A DNA stretch of 45,394 bases from a virus, in IMG/VR virus record IMGVR_UViG_3300010376_000016, positions 1-45,394 of that record, one strand, 5' to 3'. Shown in pieces: positions 3,402 to 39,372 of the stretch. A program made the position numbers and the translations under genes. The notes under the pieces are model-generated. The model saw only the letters and a program-made list of their open reading frames with translations. It made no database searches and had not been told where the DNA came from. The stretch's first letter is position 1, and every line of letters begins with the position of its first letter.

Positions 3402-4181
3402 TCAGGGCCGGGCGCAGGCTGCGCCCATCTCCAGGTTCGGCACCAGCCCCGAGGGGCCATCCGATTCACCAATCCTACTGCGCTGGCGCTGCTTTCGCAG
3501 CGTCCGCTTGACGTGCTCGCGGGAGAGCCCGAGCCGGGCTGCGATCGCGCCCGGCTTGAAGCCGTCGGCAGCGAGCTCGGCCACGGTCGCGTTCACGCTC
3601 ATTCGCTCGTGCTCCATCAGCCACGGCGGTACCCGGATCACGCGCATCCGAAGCGTGATCGTCACGACACCGAGGTCGAGCTCCAGCTGGTCGAGCTCAT
3701 CGAGGCGGCGCGGCTGCTGCTCGACCAGGACGACCCGGACAAGCGTGTGACGACGGGGCGCGTCGAGCGCGAGCTCGGCTAGCCGCTGGCGCACCTCACG
3801 GTAGCTCCCGCGCCGCTCGTACGCCTCTCTCAGCCGCTCCCACTGGTAGGGCGACTCGTTGGTCGCGTCCGGTGTCCGACGCCGGGGAGCGACCTCGACG
3901 GGCAGCGCGACGGCCTCCTGAACGGGCAGGCCGACGTAGGCGTCCCATTCGAGCTCGCCGTGCTGGCGGCGACGCCAGCCGACGCCGTCGCAGACAAGGC
4001 AGAGGGCGAACTCGCGCCGTCGGCGGATCCAGCCGGTCCGCTTGCACGTCTCGCAGGGGACGTAGCGCGACGCGGCGGGCCCTGACTCTGGCCGCAGCGA
4101 CGTGCGCGGCTGCGGGTATGGGTCGTTCAACGTTTCCAGCAGGAGACGGACCCGCTGGACGCGCTCCACGAGGTCGGACAC
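3402..4181 (-). CDS. Transcriptional regulator (259 aa): two CxxCxGxG zinc-finger motifs plus C-terminal LuxR/sigma-70 region-4-like HTH; candidate immunity repressor or late regulator
   Basis: CETCKRTG and CLVCDGVG motifs; VAELAADGFKPGAIAARLGLSREHVKRTLRK; GTG start after GGGAG; divergent from the Cro-like gene. Confidence 0.6.
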   Translation of the reverse strand: MSDLVERVQRVRLLLETLNDPYPQPRTSLRPESGPAASRYVPCETCKRTGWIRRRREFALCLVCDGVGWRRRQHGELEWDAYVGLPVQEAVALPVEVAPRRRTPDATNESPYQWERLREAYERRGSYREVRQRLAELALDAPRRHTLVRVVLVEQQPRRLDELDQLELDLGVVTITLRMRVIRVPPWLMEHERMSVNATVAELAADGFKPGAIAARLGLSREHVKRTLRKQRQRSRIGESDGPSGLVPNLEMGAACARP

Positions 4182-4562: not shown

Positions 4563-4847
4563 GTGGCGAGGATCAACTCGTTGCGCTTGACTGCTATCCA
4601 CGCGAGCGAGGAGCGGCATGACGGCCGGTTTCACGAGCGAATCCGACGGCTTCGCCTGCAGCAGGGCATGAGCCAGCAGGAGGTCGCTGACGTGACCGAG
4701 ATCAGCGTCAGGACGTACCGGGAGTGGGAGAGCGGCCGGACCGTGCCCTACCCAGGCCCGAACCTGCGCCGGATCGTCGGCCTCTTCCGGGTGACGCCCA
4801 CCTACCTCCTGCGTGGCGACGAGGAGGGGCTCGATGCCTTCGATTGA
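4563..4847 (+). CDS. XRE-family HTH regulator, Cro-like (start uncertain: TTG 4485, GTG 4563 or TTG 4581)
   Basis: RIRRLRLQQGMSQQEVADVTEISVRTYREWESGR is a typical XRE HTH. Confidence 0.8.
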   Translation: MARINSLRLTAIHASEERHDGRFHERIRRLRLQQGMSQQEVADVTEISVRTYREWESGRTVPYPGPNLRRIVGLFRVTPTYLLRGDEEGLDAFD

Positions 4848-5436
4848 CACCCATATCACCAAGGTCGAGAAGGACGAGGCGACCGGCTGGGGCCGGATCT
4901 CGACCGACGACCCGAACGTGAAGACGCTCCAGACGAAACGTCCCGATCTGCTGGCCGAGGCCGGTCAGTTGAGGCTCTCGGGTGTCCTGGTGCGGATCGA
5001 GTACACGGAGCGCGAAGGGAACGTCAACCCGAACACGGGCCGCCCGTACCTGAACCGCTATTACGAGAAGGCAACGGCGCTCGGAGAGCCCCCGCAGGCG
5101 ACCGATAGCGGCGTCGAGACCGTCCGCCAGACCCGGACGCCGACCGACCCGGATGAAGCCTGGCGGATCTCGCTGGCAGCTGGCGGGAAGCTCGCGGTGA
5201 TGACGCTCCCGATGATGCCGACGGCGCAGCGCTCGTTCGAGATCCAGAAGCGGATCGCGCTCGCCTGGGCGGAGTTCTTCTTCTTCACGTCGCGCCCGTC
5301 GCGACCGTCGGTGAACGGAAATCCGACCAGCCCATTTCAAGCCCCCACCGACGCCGGAGCCGAGCATCACAGTCCCGGAGCCTACGACGAGCCCGTCATG
5401 GCTGGCTATACGGGGCCGGATGACATTCCGTTCTAG
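4834..5436 (+). CDS. ssDNA-binding-like or annealing protein with canonical SSB C-terminal tip (…GPDDIPF) (200 aa)
   Basis: Ends in DDIPF; ATG after GAGGAGGGG; sits next to an exonuclease. Confidence 0.55.
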   Translation: MPSIDTHITKVEKDEATGWGRISTDDPNVKTLQTKRPDLLAEAGQLRLSGVLVRIEYTEREGNVNPNTGRPYLNRYYEKATALGEPPQATDSGVETVRQTRTPTDPDEAWRISLAAGGKLAVMTLPMMPTAQRSFEIQKRIALAWAEFFFFTSRPSRPSVNGNPTSPFQAPTDAGAEHHSPGAYDEPVMAGYTGPDDIPF

Positions 5437-6684: not shown

Positions 6685-6989
6685 GCCTCGACGTCGCCGT
6701 CCCGAACGTCGAGCCGAGCGAGCTCGGCTTCTGGTGGGCGCACGAACACCCCGACAGTTACGTCGTGCGGTGGGTGGACGACGATAGATGTCGTCCCGCG
6801 ACCCACGCGGAGTACGTCGAGCGCGAGTGCCGTCGGCCGCACTGCCACGGCGATCCGGTGATGGCGATGCTGCGCGGCTACGGCGACGGTGCTCGCTGGT
6901 GGCTCTACTGCCGCGAGCACCTGTACGGCCGTCGGATTGAAGACGGCATCGTCCAGTCACCGCGTCTCGTGCACAAGGACGAGTTGTGA
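6681..6989 (+). CDS. Hypothetical Cys/His-rich protein (102 aa)
   Basis: GTG with GTGA overlap; in frame with ORF 6510..6989. Confidence 0.55.
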   Translation: MSLDVAVPNVEPSELGFWWAHEHPDSYVVRWVDDDRCRPATHAEYVERECRRPHCHGDPVMAMLRGYGDGARWWLYCREHLYGRRIEDGIVQSPRLVHKDEL

Positions 6990-9349: not shown

Positions 9350-9958
9350 GTGCTGATCCTCGTCCATACCGCGCACCCGCAGGCGGTCGAACACGCCGGT
9401 CCCGGCTTCGGTCGTCTCCTCTCGCCGCGCGACTACTCGCGGGCCCGCGACACGGGCGCGGCCGGAATCCCCTGGGCGGCCGACAACGACGCCTTCAACG
9501 ACTTCCACCCGCACCGCTACGCGCAGATGCTGATGACACTGCGCGGAGCCCCCGGCTGCCTGTTCGTGACGCTGCCCGACGTCGTGGCCGACTGGCAACA
9601 GACCCGGCATCTAGCCGACCAGTGGCTAGCGTCGCTGCACGACCTGCCGGTCGCCTACGTCGCGCAGGACGGCCAGCCCGAGGCGCTCGTCCCTTGGGAG
9701 TCGATCGACTGTTTGTTCCTCGGCGGGACGACGTCGTTCAAGCTCTCCGCCGACGCGCAGCGGCTCGGCCGCGAGGCGAAGGACAAGGGCAAGTGGCTGC
9801 ACATGGGGCGCGTCAACTCGCGCAAGCGGTTCGACTACGCGCGGGCGATCCACTGCGACTCGGTGGACGGCTCGTCGTTCTCGAAGTGGCGCGAGACGTA
9901 CGTGCCCGAAGCCCTCGAATGGCACAAGGAGCCGTTTCAGATGGTGACCGAGACATGA
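9350..9958 (+). CDS. dpdA: DpdA-like DNA-guanine transglycosylase (TGT superfamily, short form, 202 aa)
   Basis: WAADNDAF and HMGRVNS...CDSVDGSSFSKW resemble the two conserved TGT/DpdA blocks; adjacent to a YhhQ-type transporter. Confidence 0.5.
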   Translation: MLILVHTAHPQAVEHAGPGFGRLLSPRDYSRARDTGAAGIPWAADNDAFNDFHPHRYAQMLMTLRGAPGCLFVTLPDVVADWQQTRHLADQWLASLHDLPVAYVAQDGQPEALVPWESIDCLFLGGTTSFKLSADAQRLGREAKDKGKWLHMGRVNSRKRFDYARAIHCDSVDGSSFSKWRETYVPEALEWHKEPFQMVTET

Positions 9959-10227
9959 TCGCGACCCGTTACGTGCTGACCGTGACCGCCAAGTGTCCGG
10001 TCGCCTTCGACTACGTCGATGTCTACGACCTGACGGTCGAGGCGGAGCAGCGAACGATCCCGGTCGAGGACATCCTCGACGCCATCGCCCGCCTGACCGA
10101 GAAGCCGATCTTCCAGGAGGAGCTCACCGAACGACTGTCGGAAGAGCTCAGAGCGACCGTCGAGACGTTCGGCACCCACTCGGGTGTCAAGACGACCTGC
10201 GTTGCGGTCTACGAGGAGCAGCCATGA
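9955..10227 (+). CDS. QueF/QueF-L-like T-fold protein (90 aa)
   Basis: KCPVAFDYVDVYDLTV...FQEELTERLSEEL parallels QueF CPxTGQPDF...FHEDC; the ExKSxKLY NADPH motif is absent. Confidence 0.4.
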   Translation: MIATRYVLTVTAKCPVAFDYVDVYDLTVEAEQRTIPVEDILDAIARLTEKPIFQEELTERLSEELRATVETFGTHSGVKTTCVAVYEEQP

Positions 10228-10751
10228 CGAAGCTCGTCGCCACGCTCGCCGCCGTCTACGTCGGGCTCGCGATCCTCGCGAACTGGCTGGCCTCGAAGTA
10301 CACGATCACCGTCCCCTTCACCGACTACCTCGCCCCAGTTGGCGTCCTCGCGATCAGGGCCGTGCTCGTGATCCGCGACTGGCTGCAGCAGTTGACGAAC
10401 CTCTGGTGGTCGCTCGCGTTGATGGTGCTCGCCGCCGCCTCGTCCTACCTGATCGGCGTCGCGGCCGGGTGGACGTCGCTGCAGAAGATCGCGATCGCGT
10501 CGGTGATCGCCTTCCTCGTCTCCGAGTCGATCGAGGCCGTCGTCTTCACGCCGCTGCGGAACCGCAACCTGACGCTCGGCGTCGGCTTGAGCGCGACGGT
10601 CGGCAACGCGATCGACTCCTACCTGTTCCTGACGATCGCCTTCGGCTCGCTCGCCTTCTTCTGGGGCAACTTCATCGGCAAGTTGGAGATGATCGCCGTC
10701 GGCGTCGTCCTGACGCTCGGCCGTCGCAGGTTCCTGGCGGTGGCGACGTGA
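10224..10751 (+). CDS. yhhQ: YhhQ/DUF165 (VUT) family queuosine-precursor (preQ0) transporter (175 aa)
   Basis: Multi-pass membrane protein; SATVGNAIDSYLFLTIAFG matches the conserved YhhQ block. Confidence 0.65.
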   Translation: MTKLVATLAAVYVGLAILANWLASKYTITVPFTDYLAPVGVLAIRAVLVIRDWLQQLTNLWWSLALMVLAAASSYLIGVAAGWTSLQKIAIASVIAFLVSESIEAVVFTPLRNRNLTLGVGLSATVGNAIDSYLFLTIAFGSLAFFWGNFIGKLEMIAVGVVLTLGRRRFLAVAT

Positions 10752-10837
10752 GCATCACCGCCATCTTCACCGGAGCGCTGCTCGGGCTCGCGGCTTGGCT
10801 GCTGATCATCGGCCTCGTCTGGTGGTGGGTCTCGTGA
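10748..10837 (+). CDS. Membrane micro-protein (29 aa, VSITAIFTGALLGLAAWLLIIGLVWWWVS)
   Basis: GTGA overlaps at both ends. Confidence 0.45.
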   Translation: MSITAIFTGALLGLAAWLLIIGLVWWWVS

Positions 10838-11835: not shown

Positions 11836-11902
11836 GTACGGCCCGACTAGTGCGGCTAGAATGCGATGGTCTAAATCCATCGACCTCACACAAGGAGGAA
11901 CC

Positions 11903-13126
11903 GTGTCTGAGTTCATCCCGCACCCTGACCGTGCGGCCTTCCCGTACCTCAAGCAACGCCGCAACGGCGTCTGGTACATCATCCAGGGGCGCAACGGCCG
12001 CTCACCGCGTCGCGACTCGCTCAAGACGACCGAGATCCGCGAAGCCGAGAAGCGCTACCACCAGCTGGTCGGGCTCGACCCCGGCGCGAACCAGAAGATC
12101 ACCGTCACCAAGGCGTGGGCGCTCTTCATGGCTGACCACTCCGCCAGCGAAGACACCCGTGACCGCTACCAGACCGCCTGGCGGATGGACATCGAGAACG
12201 AGATCGGGCACATGCTGGTCGCCAAGGTGACGCCCGGCGACTTGCAGCGGCTGCTCGACAAGGCTGCCGAGCGCAAGACGAGTCGAGGCACCCTGCTCTC
12301 CGAGAACTCGCGCCGCAACATCGAGGTCGCGCTCTCTGCCTTCTTCACCTGGTGCATCTCAGTCCCGCAGGAGTACCGGCTCGACAGTCCGGTCAAGCGG
12401 CTCGACAAGAAGAAGCGAGCTCGCGTCCGCAAGCGTTCTCACGCCGAGCTCAACCTGTACGTCACGACCGAGGAGATCGACCTGATCGCGGCGGCGGCCG
12501 GAAAGGTCGGACGGAACAACGTCAACGGCCAGATCCTCGCCGTCCAGATGCCGGTGATCGTGCTCCTGCTGCCGCTGCTCGGGCTCCGCATCAGCGAGCT
12601 TCTCGGCCTCCGTGTCAGCGACTGGCACCGCCTGCACGGCGAGCTCGTGGTCGAGCGCCAGCGCGCGCGCAAGGGCTCGGTCAAGGACCCCGGCTCGCTC
12701 GTCAAGGGACTCAAGGGCGAGGCGACCACGATCGGTGACAAGCGGCGCGTCGTCACCCTCTCGCCCTTCGCGTCGAAGACGCTGGCCGCCTACGTCGATC
12801 GCGGCGTCACGGAAGGCTGGCTGCACCACGACGGCTATCTCTTCCCGACCTACAAGGGGACGCCGCGCACCTCGTCATTCGTGATGGCGAAGCTGCGCGA
12901 GGCGGTCAAAGAGGCAGGAATCGGGCGCACGATCACCGCCCACTATTTCCGACACACGCTCGTCTCGGACGCGATCAAGTCGTACACCGATCAGGGCTCG
13001 AACGTGAACTGGACGTTGATCGGTGACACGCTCGGCCACACGCCCGAGGTCGCCCGCAAGATCTACGGGCACGTCGAACGGACCGACGCGATCCGGCGCG
13101 AGCAGGCGCGCTTCGCGGGACGCTAG
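11903..13126 (+). CDS. int: Tyrosine integrase (407 aa)
   Basis: AHYFRHT (HxxR), LGH, KIYGHV catalytic Tyr region; GTG directly after CACACAAGGAGGAACC. Confidence 0.92.
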   Translation: MSEFIPHPDRAAFPYLKQRRNGVWYIIQGRNGRSPRRDSLKTTEIREAEKRYHQLVGLDPGANQKITVTKAWALFMADHSASEDTRDRYQTAWRMDIENEIGHMLVAKVTPGDLQRLLDKAAERKTSRGTLLSENSRRNIEVALSAFFTWCISVPQEYRLDSPVKRLDKKKRARVRKRSHAELNLYVTTEEIDLIAAAAGKVGRNNVNGQILAVQMPVIVLLLPLLGLRISELLGLRVSDWHRLHGELVVERQRARKGSVKDPGSLVKGLKGEATTIGDKRRVVTLSPFASKTLAAYVDRGVTEGWLHHDGYLFPTYKGTPRTSSFVMAKLREAVKEAGIGRTITAHYFRHTLVSDAIKSYTDQGSNVNWTLIGDTLGHTPEVARKIYGHVERTDAIRREQARFAGR

Positions 13127-37917: not shown

Positions 37918-39372
37918 ATGCCTGCAGCACCGACAGGCTCGAAGGAGCTCGACCAGCTGGTCGCCCGCTTCAAGCGCGGCTACGCGCTGGAGAAGACACG
38001 CGGCGGACACTTCCGTGTTCGCAACCCGAAGGGCGAGTTCGTTGAGCTCAACGGGAAGAACCTAACTCTCACCGGGACGGCGCACGGCGGACGGGCGGTC
38101 GCGAACATGACCGCCGAACTGCGAAACGCGGGTGTCCTAAAGGCAACGACGAACGGCAAGGTGACCACCCGGCGCAAGATGGACCGCGCCGTGGTCGAGC
38201 GGCGACAGAAGGCGCAGCGCGAGTCGTTGCGGATCCGCAGCGAGAACCGGCAGAAGGTCGCGGACGAGTTGTACGAACGGCTCGACCAGGCGCTGAAGTC
38301 CGTCGGCGGGATCAACGGCAACGGCGTCCGCGCCGACCTGGCGAACGTCGGGGCACTCGTCGCCCGCCAGTCCGGGCACTCGAACATCACGCCCGACCTG
38401 ACGACCGGCAGCGTCTATCGGCTAACGCAACGGCACTGGGTCGAGCCCCGTTACCAAGAAGTCTGGAGCGAGGTCGCGGAGCGAGTCGAGCAAGCCGACG
38501 ACAAGACCGACGCCTGGTTCGCGCTCGTGCGCGAGGCGCGCGGTCTGCCCGGCGAGGTCGTGCATGTCGGCAAGCCGATCGAGGGAGACTGGCCGTTCGA
38601 GGTCAGGCAACTCGCGATCGAGGCGCTCCTGATCGACCACGAGTACCAGCGGCCTCCCGACTGGCCGTTCATTCGCCGCACCGCCGCCGCCTTCGATGAA
38701 TCGCTGGTCGGGACGATCGACGTCTCCGAGCGTCGGCACGGCGCGATCTTCGCGATCCTCGACGGCCAGCAGCGCTACGAGGCCTGCCGTCTGGTCGGCA
38801 AGAAGACAGTCTGGGCCTCTGTCTACTCCGGGCTCGACCGCGCGAGCGAGGCGCGCTTCTTCCTGCACAAGAACCGCGACAAGAAGGCGATCCATCCCTT
38901 CTACACCTTCCGCGCCCGCCTGGCGGCGCAGGAGCCGGACGCGCTGGCGATCGAGAAGCGGACGGCGAAGCACGGCTACAAGGTGACCGCGCAGGCAGCG
39001 AACGAGCGTTACCCGGAGCAGATCTCCGCGATCGCCGCGCTCGATGAAGCGTTCGGACGCAAGCAGCCCGACGGCAAGGACGCGCTCGACCCGTCGCTGC
39101 AGGCGATGAAGGCCTCGACCTTCGGGATGCGGCACGGGCAGAACCACATCCTGATCCGAGCGCTCGGGATCGTCTTCCAGGAGAAGGGCGACCTGGTCGA
39201 GATGAAACGGATTCAGGACGTGCTGATCAAGACGCCGCCCGAACTGATGCTGCAGAAGGCGCGCGAGGCGGCCCGTTACGCGAGCTCGAACACCGGCTGG
39301 GCGATGGCGCGGATCATCGCCTCCGACTACGACCGGGGGCTGAGCCGGGAGCAGAAGCTCGGCAAGCTATGA
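37918..39372 (+). CDS. Fusion protein: N-terminal HicA-like domain plus ParB/Srx-superfamily domain with DGQQR motif (484 aa)
   Basis: GYALEKTRGGHFRVRNPKGEFV...TGTAHGGRAVANM; IDHEYQRPPDW...AILDGQQRYEAC. Confidence 0.65.
   Translation: MPAAPTGSKELDQLVARFKRGYALEKTRGGHFRVRNPKGEFVELNGKNLTLTGTAHGGRAVANMTAELRNAGVLKATTNGKVTTRRKMDRAVVERRQKAQRESLRIRSENRQKVADELYERLDQALKSVGGINGNGVRADLANVGALVARQSGHSNITPDLTTGSVYRLTQRHWVEPRYQEVWSEVAERVEQADDKTDAWFALVREARGLPGEVVHVGKPIEGDWPFEVRQLAIEALLIDHEYQRPPDWPFIRRTAAAFDESLVGTIDVSERRHGAIFAILDGQQRYEACRLVGKKTVWASVYSGLDRASEARFFLHKNRDKKAIHPFYTFRARLAAQEPDALAIEKRTAKHGYKVTAQAANERYPEQISAIAALDEAFGRKQPDGKDALDPSLQAMKASTFGMRHGQNHILIRALGIVFQEKGDLVEMKRIQDVLIKTPPELMLQKAREAARYASSNTGWAMARIIASDYDRGLSREQKLGKL

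Follow-up and report, generated by a model that had tools for sequence, protein, structure and literature searches.

A phage module of a short DpdA-like protein, a QueF-L-like protein and a YhhQ-family transporter, with a proposed role in nucleic acid modification by a scavenged base

The window analysed here is the IMG/VR virus record IMGVR_UViG_3300010376_000016 over its whole length of 45,394 nucleotides, and the subject of this work is a compact module of three genes on its + strand, at positions 9350-10751, which are named g1, g2 and g3 from 5' to 3'. They are predicted to encode a short protein of the tRNA-guanine transglycosylase (TGT) superfamily resembling the DpdA enzymes, a small T-fold protein resembling the archaeosine synthase QueF-L, and a membrane transporter of the YhhQ family. 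In our judgement, this module rather probably modifies nucleic acid, most likely the phage's own DNA, with a 7-deazaguanine base that the phage does not synthesise. The genes are arranged as follows:

9350-9958, + strand: g1, 202 amino acids (aa), with a GTG start directly after the TAG stop of the upstream gene
9955-10227, + strand: g2, 90 aa, its ATG overlapping the g1 stop as ATGA
10224-10751, + strand: g3, 175 aa, overlapping the end of g2 as ATGA

A preliminary description of this DNA, made from its letters, had proposed three translationally coupled genes in this interval, and the open reading frames (ORFs) lie exactly there, with both ATGA overlaps. Simple scans found no promoter-like and no + strand terminator-like site inside the three-gene unit, which we propose to be co-translated. 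A 29-codon ORF (VSITAIFTGALLGLAAWLLIIGLVWWWVS; window 10748-10837, + strand) overlaps the g3 stop as GTGA and would encode a single hydrophobic helix. It was considered as a further part of the module and rejected, since none of the related loci has an equivalent, and it is perhaps not a gene at all.

The three proteins

The reading of g1 as a DpdA-like protein of the TGT superfamily had been put forward on the strength of two motifs, WAADNDAF and HMGRVNS...CDSVDGSSFSKW, both of which are present in the protein, and its start codon agrees with the family alignment, whose members begin MLILVHTAHPQ. No match to g1 was found in Pfam, NCBIfam or PADLOC, and the g1 family profile recovered nothing among PDB sequences at E<=10, while phrog_15826, matched at 2e-42, has no function assigned in PHROG. 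PADLOC is silent even on the DpdA1 of Mycobacterium phage Rosebush, for which Pfam likewise has no match, and is therefore uninformative for g1. The family is nevertheless a large one, counting 927 clusters in a word-indexed protein database, nearly all of about 200 aa, with 251 places in IMG/VR and 58 in GTDB. Homologs with 39-45% identity occur in mycobacteriophages of cluster P (gp55 of GreaseLightnin and others), in the Arthrobacter phages Aoka and Sonali, and in Rhodococcus phage ReqiPine5, and several of them, including those of cluster P, carry the SEA-PHAGES label 'DpdA-like tRNA-guanine transglycosylase'. Weaker relatives were detected by tblastn in Synechococcus, Escherichia, Erythrobacter, Roseobacter and Vibrio phages. 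A further homolog, with 45% identity, lies in the low-GC (46%) Firmicute genome of Paenibacillus chitinolyticus NBRC 15660 (locus L143, 6001-6585), so the family is not confined to Actinomycetota.

The AlphaFold2 (AF2) model of g1 is a (beta/alpha)8 TIM barrel, with a predicted local distance difference test (pLDDT) of 94.7 and a predicted TM-score (pTM) of 0.91. When this model was compared with the PDB by Foldseek, the top 21 matches were all TGT enzymes (E 1e-5 to 2e-4; query TM-score, TMq, 0.51-0.58). The fold matches in BFVD include phage queuine tRNA-ribosyltransferases and CGPG_00065 of Cellulophaga phage phiST, which is the prototype of DpdA3 (PMC10516641).

Among the 51-53 homologs aligned, the invariant residues are D45 and N46, P76 and D77, Q106 and D107, G125, G126 and K131, H151, G153, R154, V155 and N156, and D173 and G174, with the three aspartates of interest standing in the contexts WAADN (D45), PDVV (D77) and SVDG (D173). 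In the bacterial DpdA, Asp95 serves as acid/base, Asp130 in base recognition and Asp256 as nucleophile, with Phe99 stacking, and these three active-site aspartates are invariant across TGT and DpdA (PMC10164549). The g1 of the window has F49 four residues after D45, a position that is F or Y in the rows shown and lies outside the conserved-column lists. D45, D77, GG125-126 and D173 are collinear with D64, D100, GG150-151 and D199 of DpdA1, a correspondence taken from a low-probability profile alignment and not from a structural superposition. The distances between consecutive Asp residues, first to second and then second to third, are:

g1: 32 and 96 residues
DpdA1: 36 and 99 residues
bacterial DpdA: 35 and 126 residues

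With the phage enzyme DpdA1, g1 thus has in common the TGT-superfamily barrel, the collinear motifs D-x3-F, (P/L)DV(V/I)GD, GG and SVD(G/S)S, the lack of a Pfam TGT match and the lack of conserved Zn-binding cysteines (there is no invariant Cys in the DpdA1 alignment). It differs in its length, of about 200 aa versus 300-385 aa, in ending 29 residues past the nucleophile Asp, and in a profile similarity that is only marginal (E=0.0016). With the bacterial DpdA of the Dpd system of Salmonella Montevideo (PMC10164549), it shares the three active-site aspartates and the Phe four residues after the first of them, and by analogy it is predicted to perform the same exchange of guanine for preQ0 in DNA. 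However, contrary to that enzyme, it has no Ins1, Ins2 or Ins8 and no CxCx2Cx22H Zn site. On its sequence and model, g1 is filed here as a TGT-superfamily, DpdA-like protein, a predicted guanine/7-deazaguanine transglycosylase of a separate short subfamily outside every named DpdA subfamily.

As for g2, single-sequence searches returned nothing among phages (tblastn) or PDB sequences, and a word-index protein search gave only one relative. An exhaustive HMMER scan collected 343 representative clusters, mostly of 80-90 aa, in which C14, P15, E38, Q54, E55 and H75 are invariant and D22 (in at least 90% of members), Y24, T58 and G73 near-invariant. The only solved protein matched significantly by the profile of this family is the QueF-L of Pyrobaculum (5jyx/5k0p; E=1.5e-6, 31.4 bits), followed by GTP cyclohydrolase I as a weak next match, and the alignment to 5jyx sets C14 on Cys21, D22 on Asp28 and Q54-E55 on His-Glu. 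The AF2 model (pLDDT 96.5) has the beta-beta-alpha-alpha-beta-beta tunnel fold, with strands at 3-13, 21-31, 68-75 and 78-84 and helices at 37-47 and 54-65, and its top 12 Foldseek matches in the PDB are QueF-L chains of 5k0p and 5jyx (TMq 0.74-0.82), GTP cyclohydrolase I and bacterial QueF ranking lower. The NADPH motif of QueF, E(S/L)K(S/A)hK(L/Y)(Y/F/W), is absent from g2, where E38 is followed by DILDAIA and the family consensus has no Lys, and PF14489 (QueF) has no match in the protein. What the preliminary description had called a 90-aa QueF-like T-fold protein is, by profile and structure, more precisely QueF-L-like.

The Cys21 of QueF-L attacks preQ0 to give a thioimide, and ammonium resolves the tRNA adduct to archaeosine (PMC5485725). 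The enzyme of Pyrobaculum calidifontis and g2 have in common a unimodular T-fold, a Cys-Pro nucleophile, an Asp at Cys+7, a Glu that follows the second helix and the lack of the NADPH motif, and g2 is predicted, from sequence and model, to bind preQ0 and form the thioimide as well. They differ in that identity is about 20%, that g2 proteins have 85-90 aa versus 109, that Gln-Glu replaces His-Glu, and that His75 is found in g2. Moreover, g2 occurs in bacterial viruses, in some cases fused to DpdA-like or transporter domains, and its substrate is presumably DNA or the free base instead of tRNA. Since no phage QueF sequence aligned with QueF-L in the survey of Cui et al. 2023, the g2 family appears to be undescribed so far.

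The third protein, g3, passes the Pfam family PF02592 (Vut_1/DUF165) with 33.6 bits against a gathering score of 27.2, precomputed Pfam data also assign Vut_1 to g3 and its homologs, and phrog_4899 is matched at 8e-26. A profile built from 41 phage g3 homologs matches Escherichia coli YhhQ over residues 14-166 (41.5 bits), where the conserved motifs align, and several hydrophobic segments are present. It resembles QPTR/YhhQ proteins (PF02592, COG1738) in these respects, and differs from YhhQ in having 175 aa versus 221, in being phage-encoded and in scoring below the equivalog cut-offs (31.1 bits against TIGR00697 of NCBIfam, cut-off 50.95; 25.3 bits against PRK11212, cut-off 252), so that a preference for preQ0, preQ1 or queuine cannot be assigned to it. 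Characterised QPTR members all carry 7-deazaguanine bases, either preQ0/preQ1 in E. coli or queuine in Chlamydia (PMC11130926). In agreement with the YhhQ/DUF165 transporter named in the preliminary description, the sequence of g3 places it in the Vut_1/DUF165/YhhQ (QPTR) family of membrane transporters, as a predicted importer of preQ0-type bases. Structure prediction and profile searches, which that description had suggested as checks on the three proteins, have thus returned a TGT fold for g1, QueF-L for g2 and DUF165 homology for g3.

The genes needed to make such a base were also sought. No Pfam match to GTP_cyclohydroI (FolE), PTPS (QueD), QueC, QueF or radical-SAM families was found among 71 candidate ORFs covering the whole window. 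Profiles for FolE, QueD, QueE and QueC seeded from phage Rosebush, which did recover such genes in other phage loci, found none among all six-frame ORFs of at least 40 aa in the window. The absence of these four genes from the genome, noted beforehand from the letters, is thereby upheld.

Linkage, alternation and fusions

Neighbourhoods were counted in 80 IMG/VR viral loci holding a g1 homolog, some of them cut by contig ends, with the following results:

Vut_1 gene within 300 bp of the g1 homolog: 35 of 80 loci
Vut_1 gene anywhere in the fetched flank: 37 of 80 loci
at least one of QueC, QueE-like, QueD and FolE: 12 of 80 loci
Vut_1 and a biosynthesis gene together: 1 of 80 loci
g2-like gene with the g1 homolog: 3 of 80 loci

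With 37 loci of one kind, 12 of the other and an overlap of a single locus (Fisher p=0.0044, odds ratio 0.08), the importer and the genes for preQ0 biosynthesis behave as mutual alternatives in the vicinity of one and the same enzyme family, and the link to the importer is far tighter than reported for DpdA in general. This anti-correlation independently supports the idea, already present in the preliminary description, that the phage depends on scavenged preQ0. Where biosynthesis genes are present, they may lie very close, as in loci L075 and L028, in which QueC and radical-SAM QueE-like genes directly adjoin the g1 homologs; canonical QueF was recognised by Pfam in 3 of the ORFs scanned around eight biosynthesis-positive loci.

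Such an alternation would be hard to explain if the three genes, despite their homologies, were inert or had nothing to do with 7-deazaguanines, g1 being for example a TIM barrel for another substrate and g3 an importer of some other small molecule. We regard this as quite unlikely, even though several observations would suit it: g1 has no Pfam match and resembles the known DpdA families only weakly at the profile level, the family name Vut_1 is generic and g3 stays under the equivalog cut-offs, the DpdA of phage Orion appears idle (PMC6884629), and many g1 homologs are solitary, as in Solirubrobacterales genomes. It would have to account for three independent links to 7-deazaguanines, namely a QueF-L-like partner with preQ0-binding residues, a partner of the QPTR family, and QueC, QueD, QueE, FolE or QueF neighbours in other loci.

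Where g2 is present, its position varies and it is found joined to either of its partners:

g1-g2-g3: gene order in the window
g1-g3-g2: gene order in L005 and L086
g3-g2-g1: gene order in L008, L016 and L146
g2-g1: gene order in L150
P0224, 302 aa: natural g1::g2 fusion
P0263, 242 aa: Vut_1::g2 fusion, followed by a g1 gene, with two DNA methyltransferases flanking

DNA methylases also stand on either side of the module in L145, and they are met repeatedly in the surroundings of g1 homologs. In GreaseLightnin, the small genes beside the enzyme and importer pair show no similarity to g2, from which cluster P phages are taken to have no g2.

These separate fusions, to the transporter and to the transglycosylase, would suit a reading in which g2 is not a finishing enzyme, but a covalent trap or carrier that captures the free base as a thioimide at the transporter exit, hands it to g1 and thereby drives uptake, leaving dPreQ0 as the final base. 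With free preQ0, QueF-L does yield a thioimide that is stable and undergoes no turnover (PMC5485725), and g2 has no NADPH motif. Even so, such a role seems improbable to us. In 34 of the 37 transporter-positive loci there is no g2, so that most pairs of g1 and transporter work, if they work at all, without it; His75 and Glu38, being invariant, hint at a catalytic role in addition to binding; and a carrier of this kind has no precedent.

Proposed function of the module

The proposal that we favour, modification of the phage's DNA by an imported base, would proceed in three steps. Firstly, g3 would be inserted in the host membrane early in infection and take up preQ0, or a closely related compound, from the environment; since the preQ0 pathway is missing from many Actinomycetota, this import would supplement or replace the host supply. 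Secondly, g1 would replace guanine in DNA with the imported base through the double-displacement mechanism of TGT enzymes, with D173 as the nucleophile, D45 as general acid/base and D77 reading the base. Thirdly, Cys14 of g2 would attack the preQ0 nitrile to give a thioimide and then convert it, probably on preQ0 already in the polymer, to an amidine (archaeosine, dG+), by analogy with archaeal QueF-L. The outcome would be restriction-resistant DNA. Other outcomes of g2 might be the covalent carrier considered above or the making of dADG or dPreQ1. Folds, conserved catalytic residues, family memberships, gene linkage and fusions were computed here, and it is from these that we infer which substrate is transported, that DNA is the target, in what order the steps follow and what the final product is.

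The target could instead be RNA, the module being a phage-borne salvage route of the queuosine type which puts the imported precursor in host tRNA and tunes the translation of phage genes in a host without queuosine. TGT enzymes do act on tRNA, and tRNA TGTs are the best solved-structure fold matches of g1; archaeal QueF-L acts on preQ0-tRNA (PMC5485725), and the fusions of QPTR with bacterial TGT serve tRNA salvage in bacteria (PMC11130926). However, g1 is devoid of the Ins8/Zn region with which TGTs grip the anticodon stem-loop, the phage encodes no tRNA, and g1 homologs lie among DNA methylases, recombinases and nucleases, as well as on a conjugative-type element. Furthermore, all the 7-deazaguanine pathways of phages that have been examined act on DNA (PMC6884629; PMC10516641). 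For these reasons DNA is favoured over tRNA, and an RNA target is in our view unlikely.

Several points weigh against the proposal as a whole. The functions of the g1 and g2 families are predicted from sequences and models only. In addition, bacterial DpdA depends on the ATPase DpdB, and no obvious DpdB-like partner was identified in the window. The sole candidate for a DpdB/ParB-like helper is encoded at window 37918-39369 on the + strand, about 17 kb upstream of the module; this early protein of 484 aa has a DUF6551 domain at residues 243-362 and no sequence relative in the PDB, nothing supports such a role, and it was set aside.

The placement of g1 is open to objections of its own. Generic, unrelated TIM barrels reach TM-scores near those of TGT for g1, no Pfam TGT match was obtained, and the sequence link to Rosebush-type DpdA1 is weak (hhalign E=0.0016, probability 16%), while phiST DpdA3 gives no meaningful alignment at all (hhalign E=0.28). 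Because g1 stops 29 residues after D173, it has neither the CxCxxC motif and the CxCx2Cx22H Zn site nor the large Ins8 insertion; Ins8 as well as the Zn site is a conserved feature of bacterial DpdA and TGTs, where both contact nucleic acid. With respect to g2, a Gln precedes the anchoring Glu where QueF-L has His, and the invariant His75, absent from QueF-L, aligns with His179 of GTP cyclohydrolase I, so that its chemistry may differ from that of QueF-L. Moreover, its presence beside g1 in only 3 of the 80 loci makes g2 an accessory and not a core part. Finally, Orion, a phage with DpdA only, is unmodified (PMC6884629), and in phages 7-11 and MED16 the modification affects no more than 0.02-0.13% of G (PMC6884629; PMC8306585).

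A bolder version of the proposal can be formulated, which we hold as tentative and on balance doubtful. According to it, the g1 proteins of about 200 aa would make up a sixth DpdA subfamily, a minimal one able to work without Zn and Ins8, and would represent the standard route by which phages and conjugative elements of Actinomycetota lacking queuosine hypermodify DNA with scavenged preQ0. The g2 proteins of about 85 aa would then be the first QueF-L of bacterial viruses, acting on DNA or on the free base and making dG+ or a derivative not yet seen, with the base possibly channelled from the importer to the transglycosylase, as the natural fusions suggest.

Part of this picture is already known. 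In Rosebush, gp2 (DpdA1) is linked experimentally to dPreQ0, which is found in 28% of G (PMC6884629). Hutinet et al. 2019 described a 'DpdA only' group of 76 phages, suggested their reliance on a host or exogenous precursor, and noted YhhQ homologs in some, their table listing adjacent DpdA and YhhQ in CDKM15, eHP-6 and phiLM21; the g1-family carriers of cluster P and ReqiPine5 are absent from that catalogue. In this respect the module is somewhat less novel than it was rated beforehand, DpdA-only phages, some of them with YhhQ, having been described since 2019. What is added here is the delineation of a short DpdA-like subfamily, its quantitative coupling to the importer and exclusion from biosynthesis genes, and a QueF-L-like third component with Rosetta-stone fusions. 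In comparison with the Dpd system, which belongs to defence islands, the module lies in a phage, neither the DpdB ATPase nor DpdC was identified in the window, and family and annotation searches named no restriction enzyme there.

Phages without a base pathway form the largest class of those carrying DpdA, and their DNA modification has been an open question since 2019, for which the module suggests a concrete answer, namely that the base is imported. Cluster P mycobacteriophages, which carry the enzyme and importer pair, are culturable, and are grown on media that probably contain no preQ0. Media poor in preQ0 could explain the unmodified DNA of Orion, which is the only DpdA-only mycobacteriophage tested, has a DpdA of a different family and has no importer listed. 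To our knowledge, QueF-L is known only from the tRNA metabolism of Crenarchaeota, and the QueF-L-like partner would extend this enzyme into bacterial viruses. At 200 aa, the transglycosylase would be smaller than every other member of the TGT superfamily, and would inform on the minimal needs for a base swap in duplex DNA.

Genome setting and further loci

With ~45.4 kb and a high GC content of about 66%, the window is the genome of a temperate phage. Its capsid, portal and adaptor module is of the SU10 type and lies on the - strand, an integrase is encoded at 11861-13126, and the early genes, which include a PD-(D/E)XK nuclease and an Hjc-like resolvase, are on the + strand. The ENA metagenome contig k141_4724142 (45,503 bp) is a rotated counterpart of essentially the whole window, with 3 mismatches in 16.7 kb. 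Its end maps to window position 3531/3532, where the window sequence is continuous on both sides, and the genome is therefore treated as circular and essentially complete, an inference with which the 109 bp by which the window is shorter are consistent, as the trimmed terminal repeat of a circular assembly. No close relative of the region was found by megablast among 50,697 deposited phage genomes (INPHARED), and the window contains no tRNA gene, preQ1 riboswitch or other Rfam family. The nearest three-gene module (65% identity in g1) is on a contig binned with a metagenome-assembled genome (MAG) of Conexibacteraceae, and g1 homologs occur in many Solirubrobacterales MAGs, which together point, weakly, to a soil Thermoleophilia host.

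In about 25 Solirubrobacterales MAG chromosomes (L087-L111), the g1 homolog, with 46-47% identity, stands alone: neither a transporter nor g2 nor any Que gene lies within 6 kb of it. In one of them (L099, OY970251.1, 4700-12100), its position is some 2.5 kb upstream of the gene for a TrwC relaxase of 908 aa, and the g1 region lies between two direct repeats of about 105 bp, at 4758-4866 and 6758-6862, which share 85% identity. Over 9.3 kb, L099 matches L104 at 99.98% identity, a finding that suggests as the setting of this homolog a conjugative or mobilisable element.

Members of the g2 family are also found in three loci of a different composition (L147, at 791-2166, L148 and L149), where the g2-family gene is followed by that of a 227-aa protein which the g1 profile does not recognise. 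The gene upstream has a weak match to nucleoside 2-deoxyribosyltransferase (PF05014), and in L149 an N6/N4 DNA methylase also precedes. Possibly the 227-aa protein is another partner in base exchange for the QueF-L-like protein.

Other g1 homologs share their loci with further components. [quoted passage not shown] In the related loci L028-L030, a QueE-like radical-SAM gene and a DUF1643 gene precede the g1 homolog, which in L028 (10604-11164), the one locus in which this was tested, is followed by a gene with a NADAR domain.

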